Positions 35,576-40,167 of a stretch of DNA of 64,000 bases are shown in pieces. The stretch comes from an uncultured Bacilli bacterium (GTDB lineage: Bacteria; Bacillota_I; Bacilli_A; RF39; UBA660). How positions within the stretch are numbered: position 1 is the first letter of the stretch; each line of letters opens with the position of its first letter. The notes beneath the pieces were generated by a model. The model ran no database searches and was not told the DNA's origin. It saw nothing but the letters and a program-made list of their open reading frames with translations. A program made the translations under genes and the position numbers. The DNA is taken from assembly GCA_958413985.1 (NCBI GenBank), contig CATYVZ010000003.1:18751-82750 (forward strand). The letters are read 5' to 3'.

Positions 35576-35824
35576 ACTATCACTTCCAATTATATAAATT
35601 ATATCATAAGCTATCTTATAAGTAAATGAGGGCCTATTAATATTTTGTTATCAAAATTACTATAATTCATGTTTGAAATGGGCGATAAATTAAAATGGGC
35701 CTTTTATTTCATCCAAGGGATTTGATAACTGTTAATTTTCTATTATATTTTGCATTATTATTGTTTTATCGTTTGCTATATTTAGCGTAAAATACCCTAT
35801 TTTACCTATCTTGTCATATACCTA

Positions 35825-36682
35825 TTATTTACCACTTAATATTTTACTTATAATCTCCTTATATTTGCTTTCATTTATTTGTTTATCTAAAGTATTTGTC
35901 AAATCTTTTATGGCCTTTTCAACTAGTTCTTTTTTGTTAATTAACGATTTATATACTATGTTTAGTTTTTCTTGATTTTCAGTTATATATTTATTATTTG
36001 TATCATAATAAAAATATCTTTTAATAAAGCTTTTATTATCTTTAAACTCATTAATAAAATGACTAATATTTATCAAATTTACATATGTACTCAAATCAAT
36101 AAAATTTAAATTAAATTTACTTTCTTCATTACCTATTTTTTTATTTAAAAAATTCAAATACATGTATTCTATTACTAACATTATGTATTTTAAATTACCT
36201 AATAAATAATTTTTATACTTTATAGTTTCACTCATATATGACAGTAATTCCTTCATACTGGATGGATGAATAATTTTACAAAGGTATTTATAAATTTCAT
36301 TGAAATCTTCTTTTTCAAAATAATCTGTAAAAATTTCTTTACAATTAAATTCTAAGATTGATCTTAAATCTCTTGAAACTGTATCTAATGTTATATTAAG
36401 TTTCTTATCATATGATTTTGCTATTATATAAATAATATTTTCATATAAAGTTCTTAAAATTGTGGCCGCATTTAATAAATCTTGTTTTTCTATAAGTTCA
36501 TTAACTAATCTAAAATCATGAGTAATTTTGATATACAAATTTTTTGACTTATTATATTTGCTTATTTTCTTAAATTCAAAATTATCTATTTCATCCAAAT
36601 ATACATAATTTGCACAGTTTAATATTCTCATACATTTTTTATAATTATTTATTCGTTTTATAAACTGACTTGCTGTTGCCAT
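35825..36682 (-). CDS. Hypothetical protein (285 aa) in the R-M/defense-like locus
   Basis: Lys/Asn-rich, predicted helical. No motif recognised by eye. Co-oriented with the 36839 gene, separated by a 156-bp spacer. Confidence 0.4.
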   Translation of the reverse strand: MATASQFIKRINNYKKCMRILNCANYVYLDEIDNFEFKKISKYNKSKNLYIKITHDFRLVNELIEKQDLLNAATILRTLYENIIYIIAKSYDKKLNITLDTVSRDLRSILEFNCKEIFTDYFEKEDFNEIYKYLCKIIHPSSMKELLSYMSETIKYKNYLLGNLKYIMLVIEYMYLNFLNKKIGNEESKFNLNFIDLSTYVNLINISHFINEFKDNKSFIKRYFYYDTNNKYITENQEKLNIVYKSLINKKELVEKAIKDLTNTLDKQINESKYKEIISKILSGK

Positions 36683-36838
36683 AATATCACCTTTGTAATT
36701 AATTATTATACCATAAAAAAGTCATCACTGACTTTTCTCATCATAATTCCATAACCCAATTTAACAGCAAGTAAAATTTCGCTTTTATTTTTCAGCATTT
36801 ATAATTTCCAAGCGTATCCTATTTTATCATCTTTTTCA

Positions 36839-37696
36839 TTATTCACTATCTATTATATTTGATAATTCAAATCTTTCTCCATATTTTTTTAATATATCCT
36901 CTGCGAATGATAAGAACGAAATATCTTCTAATTCTAAATCAAAGTCATTATCAATTAATCCATCTTTTTTTAGTTCATCAGTTGTATTATATATTACCGG
37001 TTTTTCTTTTGAAAAATCAACTATTAAAAGTGCGCATCTTTCATATTTATACTCATCATCATCTTTATTTAATCTGTTATTAATTGCAGAAAAGAAACTT
37101 ATATATTTTGCTAAATTTGTTTTTCTATTTGAAAAAGATACAATATTATTCTTAGCATCAGACTCATTATATTCATAAACAGGAATTAGATATACCTCAC
37201 CTAAAACAATACTTTTATAAATTGTGTGTAAATTCATAGCTTCTGCAAATGTTCTTTCAAATAGTGTATCGGCATTTTTCGCCAAACTACTAAGCTGACT
37301 TCTTATATTTATTACCAGACAATTAGATGTATATTCAATTCCAAACATGTCTTTTTTATTTTCATGCTTCAAAGGACCCCAATCAACAACGATTTCCTCT
37401 TTTTCAACATTAGAGGGAATTACTGTTACATCCTGATCTTTTTGTTTTAAAAAACCTGTTATTTTGACTTCTGGATTAGAGCGACCCAACGGAGGAAAAA
37501 TATTTCCGGATTTTACTTTATTCCTAACTAATTCTTCTTTTACACATTCGTGCAAATATCCTATTAATCTAGATGATCTTATCAAACTTTCTTTCGCTAA
37601 TGATCCATTACCAAAAATTTTCCCCTCATTTTCTCCTGTGGAAATACATAATTCTATTTCTTTTTTTATTATTGACATACAATTTTCTATATTCAT
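36839..37696 (-). CDS. Hypothetical protein (285 aa), candidate restriction endonuclease partner of the divergent methyltransferase
   Basis: Divergently transcribed from the MTase gene across a 117-bp shared upstream region. Its size is typical of Type II REases. No PD-(D/E)XK motif could be assigned by eye. Confidence 0.35.
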   Translation of the reverse strand: MNIENCMSIIKKEIELCISTGENEGKIFGNGSLAKESLIRSSRLIGYLHECVKEELVRNKVKSGNIFPPLGRSNPEVKITGFLKQKDQDVTVIPSNVEKEEIVVDWGPLKHENKKDMFGIEYTSNCLVINIRSQLSSLAKNADTLFERTFAEAMNLHTIYKSIVLGEVYLIPVYEYNESDAKNNIVSFSNRKTNLAKYISFFSAINNRLNKDDDEYKYERCALLIVDFSKEKPVIYNTTDELKKDGLIDNDFDLELEDISFLSFAEDILKKYGERFELSNIIDSE

Positions 37697-37813
37697 AAAA
37701 GCAACCTCTTAATATATTTTAACATTTTTTGTATTTTTTTTAAATTATTTGACAGTTATTTAATAAAAATATCTTTTTTTAATGTATAATTAGTATATAA
37801 GGATGGTGCATAA

Positions 37814-39604
37814 ATGAAAAACAATATTATATCAAAACTTTTACATTCTTACTCTATTGTAGATATAGAAAACGCTGCCATCAAATTATTTTTAAATAAC
37901 AATAATATTTCAGATATAAAAAATAGAATTATTCAAAATAGAATTAATATCGTTAATTCTGATATTTTAGAAACTTTAAAAAATAATTTTAATATTAAAA
38001 CTATTGATTCATTAGACAAATTTTTTGAAAATTTATTTAATGAAAAAGAAAAAACTGAAAACGGTATAGTATTTACTCCAGATTTTATAGCTGATTACAT
38101 TGTTAAAAATACTATTACAAGTTTTAATGAAAATACAAAAATCATTGATCCTTCTTGTGGATGCGGAATATTTTTAATTTCCACCATAAAACATATAAAA
38201 AGTTTAACTAATATTTCAATTAGTAATATTATTAAAAACAATTTATACGGAATAGATTTACAAAAAGAAAATATTGAAAGAGTTAAAGTATTGATATCAT
38301 TATATGCTATCATAAATGATGAAGATAATGAAGAATATAGTTTTAATTTAAAATGCTGTGATAGTTTATTTAGTGACTGGAAAAATATTTTTAAAGTTAA
38401 TAAATTTGACTATATAATTGGAAACCCGCCTTATATTAACAATCATGATCTAAAAGATGAGTATATAAATTTATTAAAAAATAGTTATGAATCAACTCAA
38501 GAAGGCACTTTCAACATTTTCTATGTTTTTATTGAAAAAAGCTCAATAAATTTATCAGATACAGGAAAAATTGGATATATTATTCCAAATAATTTTCTTC
38601 ATATTAAATCTGCCAAAAAATTAAGACAATACATAAAAAATAATAATTTATTAAATACTATCATTGATTTTAAAGATAATACTGTGTTTTCTCCTGTTTT
38701 AACATATAACTCTATTGTTTTCTTAACTAAAAATAATACAACAATTAAATATGCTCAAGTAAAGAAAACTAAAAACATTAATAACATCTTAGAAAATATT
38801 AATTTCAAAACAAAAAAAATTGATGAATTAGATGATGATTGTTGGATTTTATCAAATAACAATACAATTAATAACATTAGAAAAATTGAATCATATAATA
38901 AAATTGATTCGTTTATAAAAACTGGTATTGCAACTTTAAGAGATAAGTTATTTATATTAGACGGATATGATGAAGACAAAAAATTATATTTTAAAAGTAT
39001 TGATAATATTATATATTATATAGAACCAGAGATAACCAAACCATTCATTAAAATTTCTAAATATAAGGCAACTAAAAAAATAGAAAGAATAATTTTTCCA
39101 TATGAAATAAAACATGGCAAATCATCTATTTACGATATAGAAAAATTAAAAAAATTATTTCCATTGTGCTATAAATATTTTGAAGATAATAAAACTTTAA
39201 TAGAAAAAAAAGAAAAAGGTAAAATTATAACTCCTTGGTATATTTATGGTAGAGCGCAGGGATTAAATTTGTTTGATGACAAAATTATTTTTTCTACATT
39301 TAATAGTTTGCCAGAATTTATGGATTGTCCAAATAATGAGGCTCTTTTATCAAATGGTTATTGTATAACTAATTTTCCATATAATAAAATGTTATTATTA
39401 AAAATACTAAATTCTAAAGTTATGAAATATTATATAGAAAATACAAGTTATAGTATTTCTGGTAATTATAAATGTTTCCAGAAAAAATATATTAAAAACT
39501 TCTCTATACCTAATATAGATAAAAATATAGAAATGGAGATTTTACAATTAAATGGTAAAAAATTAGATGAATATCTATTTAATTTATACAAATTAGATGA
39601 ATAA
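37814..39604 (+). CDS. N6-adenine-specific DNA methyltransferase (gamma class: motif I before NPPY, large C-terminal target-recognition region)
   Basis: Motif I IIDPSCGCGIFL and motif IV YIIGNPPYI. 596 aa with a single catalytic domain. Confidence 0.75.
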   Translation: MKNNIISKLLHSYSIVDIENAAIKLFLNNNNISDIKNRIIQNRINIVNSDILETLKNNFNIKTIDSLDKFFENLFNEKEKTENGIVFTPDFIADYIVKNTITSFNENTKIIDPSCGCGIFLISTIKHIKSLTNISISNIIKNNLYGIDLQKENIERVKVLISLYAIINDEDNEEYSFNLKCCDSLFSDWKNIFKVNKFDYIIGNPPYINNHDLKDEYINLLKNSYESTQEGTFNIFYVFIEKSSINLSDTGKIGYIIPNNFLHIKSAKKLRQYIKNNNLLNTIIDFKDNTVFSPVLTYNSIVFLTKNNTTIKYAQVKKTKNINNILENINFKTKKIDELDDDCWILSNNNTINNIRKIESYNKIDSFIKTGIATLRDKLFILDGYDEDKKLYFKSIDNIIYYIEPEITKPFIKISKYKATKKIERIIFPYEIKHGKSSIYDIEKLKKLFPLCYKYFEDNKTLIEKKEKGKIITPWYIYGRAQGLNLFDDKIIFSTFNSLPEFMDCPNNEALLSNGYCITNFPYNKMLLLKILNSKVMKYYIENTSYSISGNYKCFQKKYIKNFSIPNIDKNIEMEILQLNGKKLDEYLFNLYKLDE

Positions 39605-40021
39605 AATCATCTTTTTTTCTTGACCTTTATTTTAAGTGGTTAACACAACAACCGGATGTTACATATGATTAGAAAAAATACAGATGAAGATATTTCTGAT
39701 TCTATACACTATATTAAATATTCTATTTTTGAATTCTATGACAATTCCTATTTGAACATTATTTTCCTCATCCACAATATCACATTCTTTGTTACCGCTT
39801 GTTCCATAGAAAAATTCTACTAATTAGTTTTTCTTTTTTAAAATAGTAATTCTACATCACTAAATCCATCAGGTTTTTGATTTGATAATTTTAAAAAATC
39901 TAATTCAACTTTACTAATAGAATTATATCATTTTTTATCGAAAAAAAATTAGCAATTTCAACTGAATTTATAAAATTCATTCCCAACTTGTTCACAAAAC
40001 CTTATAAATACTAGCTATACA

Positions 40022-40048
40022 CAAAAAAATGCTAGGCTTTCGCCTAGC
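40022..40048 (-). terminator. Rho-independent terminator downstream of recG
   Basis: Perfect hairpin GCTAGGC-TTTC-GCCTAGC (40031-40048) preceded on the + strand by A7, which is a T-run after the stem on the - strand. Confidence 0.6.
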
Positions 40049-40167
40049 TTCAGGGGGTTTGGTTGAGCCAACTCACATCATATTACAGTAAGAGACTCAA
40101 GCGTGGATACCACGCAATTATAATTATAAATAAGAAGTGCCTAATTGTCAAGACATTTAACAACATA

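Follow-up and report, generated by a model that had tools for sequence, protein, structure and literature searches.

The window examined here, a 64-kb stretch of DNA from an uncultured Bacilli bacterium, encodes between dgkA and recG a DNA methyltransferase (methylase) of 596 aa and two proteins of 285 aa each. We conclude with high confidence that this locus is a composite, in which a classical two-gene Type IIP restriction-modification (R-M) system, most likely directed at CTRYAG, stands beside an unrelated and separately transcribed gene, ORF-A. The R-M system would consist of the methylase and the endonuclease encoded divergently from it. A preliminary description of this DNA, made from its letters, had offered the locus as either a candidate R-M system or a novel defense module. 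The open reading frame (ORF) call reproduced its three ORFs with their coordinates and sizes and its 117-bp divergent spacer, and the Pfam labels of the flanking genes (DAGK_prokar for dgkA and RecG_dom3_C for recG) agreed with the placement that it gave. The three genes and the elements adjoining the R-M pair are as follows.

35825-36682, (-) strand: ORF-A, 285 aa, from the ORF call
36839-37696, (-) strand: Type II restriction endonuclease gene, 285 aa, probably of PD-(D/E)XK fold and predicted to cut unmethylated CTRYAG
37697-37813: divergent intergenic region of 117 bp, between the starts of the two R-M genes
37814-39604, (+) strand: predicted gamma-class N6-adenine DNA methyltransferase gene, 596 aa
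39595-39618, (+) strand: hairpin AGATGA-ataaaa-TCATCT with T-run, recognized by inspection of the letters; it overlaps the stop codon of the methylase gene

Methylase and endonuclease match Type II families

The 596-aa protein is assigned as a gamma-class N6-adenine methyltransferase with an N-terminal catalytic domain and a C-terminal target-recognition domain. In its sequence, IIDPSCGCGIFL (motif I, DPSCGCGIFL, at about residue 111) precedes DYIIGNPPYI (motif IV, with NPPY at residue 204). The protein matched the Pfam families Eco57I (E = 1e-28) and MmeI_Mtase (E = 3e-9) and, over residues 5-595, the REBASE-derived PADLOC profile MTase_II PDLC03335 (E = 1.1e-148). Its residues 67-561 also aligned with CamA of C. 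difficile (PDB 7LNI; E = 1e-23); motifs I and IV were both matched, and the C-terminal 350 aa of the methylase lay on the CamA recognition domain. The CamA alignment with its matched motifs confirms the gamma-class order and identifies the C-terminal 350 aa as the recognition domain. Both points had been read by eye in the preliminary description, which placed motif I ahead of NPPY and proposed a target-recognition region of ~350 aa, and both were borne out, the former also by the Eco57I match. CamA shares with the window methylase a two-domain architecture and near-identical motifs I (D-x-SCGCG-x-FL) and IV (DYI-x-GNPPYI). It is, however, a remote match, and the window enzyme differs in having a cognate endonuclease and a predicted palindromic target, whereas CamA is an orphan methylase with the asymmetric target CAAAAA. 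The whole window encodes one DNA methylase.

The middle protein of the locus matched the REBASE-derived PADLOC profile REase_II PDLC03558 over residues 1-277 of its 285 (E = 2.4e-107), and searches against Pfam, NCBIfam and PDB sequences gave no match. Neither 285-aa protein had been credited with a nuclease motif in the preliminary description; this was a fair reading by eye, but the middle protein belongs to a recognized Type II endonuclease family. The family comprises 1130 homologues (E <= 1e-3), and at 53-93% identity across many hosts 63 alignment columns are invariant. Invariant residues include K84, K86, D89, N130, R132, S133, Q134, K140, D143, E147, R148 and E152. The AlphaFold 2 (AF2) model, with a predicted local distance difference test (pLDDT) score of 93.4, is an alpha/beta fold with a mixed sheet, in which the invariant D89 lies at a beta-hairpin and a strand reading I-N-I-R-S-Q is conserved. 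The best Foldseek matches of the model in the PDB were BbvCI, PspGI, BsmI, BspD6I, BstEII and SgrAI, all of them PD-(D/E)XK restriction enzymes and all weak (E of at least 2e-3). On this model the endonuclease probably has a PD-(D/E)XK fold.

The two genes are co-inherited

Outside the window's species, a methylase homologue was present in 71 of the 88 loci that hold an endonuclease homologue, and the remaining 17 are mostly short contigs or loci with the endonuclease at a contig end. Eco57I-type methylases of 590-634 aa adjoin the endonuclease homologue in Bacillus sp. FJAT-50079, in three further lineages (L034-L039; L numbers are used for comparison loci and contigs throughout) and on small plasmids of Lactobacillus and Limosilactobacillus, which carry the methylase-endonuclease pair alone. 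The order of the two genes varies among loci, including divergent and tandem arrangements and others, and variable gene order is usual among Type II systems.

The methylase and endonuclease are thus found as separate, adjacent and co-inherited genes, with an endonuclease that belongs at full length to a recognized Type II family (PDLC03558). We assign the pair as a conventional two-gene Type II (IIP) R-M system. The earlier proposal of a candidate R-M locus is in this way substantiated, the PADLOC search having returned full-length Type II matches for methylase and endonuclease. The preliminary description had also allowed for an orphan methylase conserved in all relatives, an outcome that was not encountered; the methylase is no orphan. 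The pair belongs to a family already included in REBASE-derived profiles and is conceptually not new.

In the proposed mechanism, the methylase would use S-adenosylmethionine to methylate adenine at N6 on both strands of the target, and the endonuclease, probably a homodimer with a PD-(D/E)XK core, would cut incoming DNA that lacks the mark; the cleavage chemistry and the homodimeric state are predictions. Transcription of the R-M genes would proceed divergently from the 117-bp spacer without a controller protein, and no controller (C) protein gene is present at the pair. The spacer must hold the promoters of both R-M genes. A promoter scan returned several sigma-70-like matches there, weak, on both strands and none exceeding background, so that any of them would be a putative promoter at most. 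At the other end of the methylase gene, the hairpin and T-run at 39595-39618 form a likely intrinsic terminator, which the consensus terminator scanner missed because of its A+T-rich stem.

Site avoidance points to CTRYAG as the target

The target of the system is most likely CTRYAG, with N6-methyladenine (m6A) at position 5, which would make it an isoschizomer of SfcI, SfeI, BfmI and LlaBI. In a k-mer scan of the window, CTRYAG was observed 0 times against 29 expected, and the four R-Y words alone were missing from the CTNNAG set of 16. To extend the comparison, 80 more loci with endonuclease homologues were fetched from metagenomes, and carriers were compared with lineage-matched loci without the system. 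The carrier set, from which the window was excluded, comprised 12 independent loci totaling 160 kb, with endonuclease identities of 53-92% and host G+C of 0.23-0.38.

In these carriers 79.5 CTRYAG sites were expected and 18 observed (ratio 0.23, Poisson p = 9e-17); none of the 338 low-degeneracy palindromic hexamers compared had a lower ratio. All patterns with p-values below that of CTRYAG were depleted to the same degree in the controls; highly degenerate patterns, which owed their p-value rank only to large counts and were likewise as depleted in controls, were rejected. In the 16 lineage-matched control loci without the system, 134 sites were observed against 123.5 expected. The depletion was also specific within the CTNNAG series: in carriers the four R-Y words had ratios of 0.06-0.32 and the other twelve 0.58-1.62, and in the controls and five loci including those of sister species each of the four CTRYAG words was undepleted (0.77-1.54). 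Sister-species sequences that lack the locus had 7 sites against 10.1 expected and 6 against 9.0, near normal and inclusive of the orthologous polC-dgkA block. It is the avoidance of CTRYAG in the window and carriers, together with the lack of avoidance in controls, that leads to the prediction of CTRYAG m6A. The NPPY motif indicates N6-adenine as the methylated base, and its position within CTRYAG is a prediction. In line with the prediction, a methylase of pneumococcus that is related to a predicted CTRYAG enzyme produces CTBVm6AG (PMC6265443). An avoidance scan that pooled all 66 carrier loci was uninformative, being dominated by general biases (GATC, CATG and A-tracts) and including the distant half of the family, which probably has other specificities.

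Among known systems, SfcI, SfeI, BfmI, BstSFI and LlaBI (L. lactis W56) resemble the pair described here in having two separate genes, an m6A methylase, a palindromic hexamer as target and Firmicute hosts. The sequenced LlaBI genes encode a methylase of ~580 aa and an endonuclease of ~300 aa, sizes that would match those of the window pair. LlaBI is plasmid-borne. The specificity of the window pair is deduced from site avoidance; no match to the R-M pair was found among Lactococcus plasmids in PLSDB. LlaBI is given in PMC4712225, which cites Nyengaard 1993, as cutting C/TRYAG. PstI and BsuBI also offer a parallel, as their site CTGCAG (m6A) is among the four CTRYAG words and both systems have a gamma-type N6-adenine methylase, which modifies, or in the window is predicted to modify, the adenine before the final G. 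However, the window endonuclease has no match to the Pfam BsuBI/PstI endonuclease family, and its predicted target is broader. The value of the R-M pair is practical: an endonuclease family that lies outside Pfam and NCBIfam and is annotated as "hypothetical protein" now has a predicted target (CTRYAG, m6A) open to test, and a restriction barrier is recognized in a lineage of gut Bacilli without cultured members.

ORF-A is separated from the R-M pair by its own transcription signals

Outside the window's species, a single one of the 88 endonuclease loci holds ORF-A, and a single one of the 30 ORF-A loci holds the endonuclease. Among the species with ORF-A, the R-M pair occurs only in that of L018, and in none of them does dgkA or recG lie close by. 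BLASTP detected no similarity between the two 285-aa proteins (best E = 0.71 over 18 residues), and their AF2 models differ in fold class, the endonuclease being alpha/beta and ORF-A entirely helical, without beta strands (pLDDT 81.6). The elements around ORF-A are listed below.

35716-35814, (-) strand: A+T-rich non-coding block, ~100 nt long and conserved, that follows ORF-A
36694-36687, (-) strand: ORF-A ribosome-binding site AAAGGTGA (GGTGA)
36713-36705, (-) strand: extended -10 element TGgTATAAT, abutting the hairpin and T-run
36736-36715, (-) strand: hairpin AAAAGTCA-gtga-TGACTTTT (at 36736-36717) with T-run
36754-36834, (-) strand: decayed C-terminal remnant of an ASCH-domain gene, within the 156-bp spacer between ORF-A and the endonuclease

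The stretch 36736-36705 reads as a putative terminator or insulator followed by a promoter of ORF-A's own. The same series of hairpin, T-run, TGnTATAAT and GAGGTGA also precedes ORF-A homologues in L001, L004, L015-L021, L026, L027 and L033, whatever gene lies upstream.

The same spacer retains a trace of an earlier neighbor. A tblastn search of window positions 36683-36838 with the ASCH protein of L042 gave 14/28 identities with an in-frame stop (E = 9e-5), and blastn ties window positions 36704-36807 to the same place in L040. In these closest R-M relatives an ASCH-domain gene follows the endonuclease (L040/L042, 10858-11223); it is disrupted in L040. The L042 gene encodes 121 aa (Pfam E = 2e-7) and begins on the stop codon of the endonuclease gene, an arrangement suggestive of translational coupling. 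The ASCH gene may be an optional third gene of the R-M family. Since its remnant lies between ORF-A and the endonuclease, we conclude that ORF-A was inserted beside the R-M pair secondarily. In the history we propose, ORF-A arrived next to the endonuclease, with its own terminator and promoter, after the ASCH gene had decayed there.

On the other side of ORF-A, the conserved tail block was found by nhmmer as one copy per locus in 24 loci, including L001, L015-L021, L027, L033 and L040-L042. In R-M loci without ORF-A it marks the end of the equivalent slot, where it follows the ASCH gene and a 246-aa membrane protein (L040/L042) or nothing (L041). The block is better conserved than the third codon positions of ORF-A in several locus pairs. 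Two candidate explanations for the block were rejected: as a structured RNA it had no Rfam match and no consensus secondary structure, and as a conserved small ORF it had frames that differ among loci.

ORF-A is a roaming gene of defense islands

The score of ORF-A against Pfam DUF5677 (PF18928) was 21.9 bits (E = 2e-4), short of the 27.1-bit gathering cut-off, and the match was limited to profile positions 7-46. Within the family, 27 of 41 members matched DUF5677 at E <= 0.1 (best E = 7e-8), and some relatives pass the cut-off. By these scores ORF-A is a distant DUF5677 relative, short of clear membership. DUF5677 is not known to have a function. No match to ORF-A was found in PADLOC, NCBIfam, PHROG or PDB sequences, a search of PDB sequences with the ORF-A profile returned nothing relevant, and no copies were found in phage and plasmid collections. 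The family is narrow, with 83 representatives at E <= 1e-3 among 1.84 billion, and its carriers, 19 species genomes, are all uncultured gut Bacilli, with "Mycoplasma sp. CAG:956" and "uncultured Bacilli bacterium" as examples. Its invariant residues, R77-x3-E81 and K136-x2-H139, lie on different helices. In Foldseek the highest-probability matches of the model were small HEPN domains (1UFB, probability 0.72; 4NQF and 2Q00, probability 0.54; E > 2), and AbiV was also among the matches at a probability of <= 0.15; every structural match had E > 0.5. HEPN and AbiV-type abortive-infection proteins are therefore a looser comparison, with a weak likeness in fold, and the Rx4-6H motif that marks HEPN ribonucleases is absent from ORF-A.

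The neighborhoods of ORF-A homologues are rich in anti-phage genes. Homologues lie directly downstream of, and co-oriented with, GmrSD (L004, L016, L020 and L026), a NACHT-like protein of 1130 aa (L017 and L027), PDC-M12/AbiL-like genes (L015), an AbiP2 reverse transcriptase (L029; E = 3e-186) and nSTAND3 genes near a serine recombinase (L123). In L120 a further homologue adjoins a SNF2-DUF4391-methylase cluster. Neighbors also often include integrase fragments and serine recombinases, and DUF5677 has been reported as enriched beside defense-marking serine recombinases (PMC12632615). Distant ORF-A homologues (54-64% identity) occur in a tight three-gene operon (L024 2718-5313, L025 6727-9338, L030 6752-9355 and L029 519-3366), in which gene 1 encodes an unannotated protein of 413-417 aa, or an AbiP2-type reverse transcriptase in L029, and ORF-A is second. 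The third gene encodes 155-162 aa with a weak Pfam HEPN match (E = 0.004) and invariant ACEL..KS, H79 and WRYxYE. This operon of the distant clade may be an undescribed defense system. A kinship between ORF-A and its 160-aa HEPN-like partner was considered and rejected (hhalign E = 0.76), only a short N-x5-R-x2-YE motif being common to the two.

We conclude that ORF-A is an independent, roaming defense-island gene of related gut Bacilli and lies outside the R-M system. The possibility, foreseen in the preliminary description, that the 285-aa proteins have housekeeping homologues did not materialize; ORF-A is no housekeeping gene. Our best guess is that ORF-A is a stand-alone or accessory anti-phage factor, any role in defense being one that we infer from the company it keeps. 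A more far-reaching proposal, which we put forward tentatively and regard as possible rather than probable, is that ORF-A with its terminator-promoter head and ~100-nt tail constitutes a cassette in its own right. Its product would be a new single-gene anti-phage or defense-modulating protein of the DUF5677 superfamily, specific to uncultured gut Bacilli and shuffled among GmrSD, STAND, AbiL, reverse-transcriptase and R-M islands, and the distant clade would be a three-gene system with an AbiP2-type reverse transcriptase (or the 413-aa protein) and a small HEPN-like protein. As a narrow and well-conserved family, ORF-A is a modest lead and a candidate for follow-up; if defensive, it would give DUF5677 its first function.

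Weighing of alternative explanations

Several observations weigh against a CTRYAG-specific R-M pair beside a defensive ORF-A. No canonical (D/E)XK triplet could be assigned in the endonuclease from its invariant residues and model, and its structural matches in Foldseek are individually non-significant. Residual CTRYAG sites, mostly CTATAG, are present in some carriers (L042, L018 and L047), so that the depletion is incomplete, and distant family members (49-59% identity) show other avoidance patterns. The latter indicates that specificity varies within the endonuclease family. The most depleted hexamer in the window is CAATTG, the MunI/MfeI site (0 observed against about 22-26 expected). Its absence implies that at least one other R-M system shaped the genome, and co-occurring R-M systems could in principle confound the CTRYAG association. 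In the same-species contig L010 one base is missing from the endonuclease ORF, 45 nt from its start (GAATTATGT to GAA-TATGT, at about position 885 of L010, equivalent to about 37650 of the window), by which the frame of the first 17 endonuclease codons is shifted; either the strain has lost restriction naturally or the contig was misassembled. For ORF-A, the one published test of a DUF5677 ORF that we found, made in E. faecalis, does not name that ORF among those that protected against phage (PMC12632615).

How far these points favor other explanations can be judged from the remaining evidence. That the R-M system is real but has a target other than CTRYAG, the avoidance being due to a different, co-occurring R-M system, is unlikely but deserves some weight, given the complete avoidance of CAATTG, which shows that other systems are or were present, and the partial depletion in several carriers. 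Against this, the depletion tracks the R-M family over 12 loci in varied hosts and is absent in the 16 controls and the sister-species loci, exactly the four R-Y words of CTNNAG are hit, CTRYAG is the lowest of the 338 palindromes, and the window encodes a single DNA methylase. CAATTG itself was rejected as the target because it is undepleted in other carriers of the R-M family (51 observed against 61.8 expected), and its absence from the window is for that reason attributed to another system elsewhere in the genome. We consider it very unlikely that the methylase is effectively an orphan or epigenetic regulator beside a decaying endonuclease, at a locus that no longer restricts. The orphan status of CamA, its closest solved relative, and the L010 frameshift would fit such a state, but neither the window nor any of the other six same-species contigs containing the endonuclease has it in less than full length, its 63 invariant columns are maintained at 53-93% identity, and a target wholly missing from 64 kb argues for sustained restriction pressure.

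The composite nature of the locus is challenged by the idea that all three genes form one system, in which ORF-A would act as a second subunit, as a factor for specificity or regulation, or as an additional effector. The preliminary description had raised two such arrangements, a heterodimeric endonuclease made of the two 285-aa proteins and a three-gene novel defense module. The genes for the two proteins of equal size are adjacent and co-oriented, and all same-species contigs have retained the trio, as has the related species of L018. BbvCI and BspD6I are heterodimers, and BbvCI is the top, though weak, structural match of the endonuclease with a similar subunit size. However, the subunits of BbvCI-type heterodimers are homologous PD-(D/E)XK proteins encoded together (about 275-285 aa each in BbvCI), whereas here the second 285-aa protein is all-helical, unrelated to the first and almost never co-inherited with it. 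The rare co-occurrence, the different fold classes and the transcription anatomy, with a terminator hairpin, a separate promoter and the ASCH remnant between the genes, lead us to reject the heterodimer and the three-gene system, as does the two-gene pair standing alone on small plasmids; any one-system reading is barely credible. Much closer is the question of whether ORF-A serves defense at all. That mobile islands instead carry it as a passenger or for their own maintenance, with a regulatory or structural role for instance, has a probability that falls only a little short of even. ORF-A matches no defense profile, the E. faecalis test gave no support, a defensive role follows from guilt by association only, and integrase fragments and serine recombinases are among its frequent neighbors. 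Against this, ORF-A lies directly downstream of at least five different known defense gene types and, in the distant clade, in a tight operon with the AbiP2 reverse transcriptase (or 413-aa protein) and the 160-aa weak-HEPN protein, and no phage or plasmid copies of ORF-A were found.

The locus is an accessory island with a variable flank

All same-species contigs that cover the locus carry all three genes. In the sister species (PMM 88% identical) the order polC-yegS-prmC-prfA-PMM-dgkA is kept, but the genes on the left side of dgkA are unrelated; all three proteins are missing from this species and from the one with 76% PMM identity. G+C is 0.18-0.24 over the three genes, compared with about 0.27-0.32 in the flanks. 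The preliminary description had supposed an acquired island and suggested a comparison of synteny in relatives. The low G+C, the absence of the insert from a sister species with conserved polC to dgkA order and the variable flank described below all agree with it.

In the same-species contigs L007 and L009, homology to the window stops at 39919. Beyond this point they hold an extra island with a DpnII-type R-M system (Dam-like and N6_N4 methylases and DpnII endonuclease), DUF8370/DUF8371 genes and an integrase. One flank of the locus is thus a strain-variable insertion point. The junction is marked by the following feature, which may be an att-like repeat.

39910-40055: edge of the shared island, 146 bp, with an 80%-identical copy inside the extra DNA (L007 5320-5447)

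The non-coding stretch 3' of the methylase (39605-40167) measures 563 bp and includes a 55-aa ORF at 39656-39823. The earlier estimate of ~560 bp of non-coding DNA holds, but the description of this ORF as decayed is unsubstantiated, as a homologue search found none, and the start assigned to it, 39665, is an internal ATG of the ORF that begins at 39656.

Elsewhere in the window, at 8447-10006 on the (-) strand, a large serine recombinase (Resolvase, Recombinase and Zn_ribbon_recom) is encoded. Next on the same strand come genes for a HipA-like kinase (7214-8401; its Pfam match falls slightly short of the cut-off) and for a DNA/RNA non-specific endonuclease (6511-7227). This recombinase locus (6511-10006) resembles the recombinase-associated defense loci of PMC12632615.

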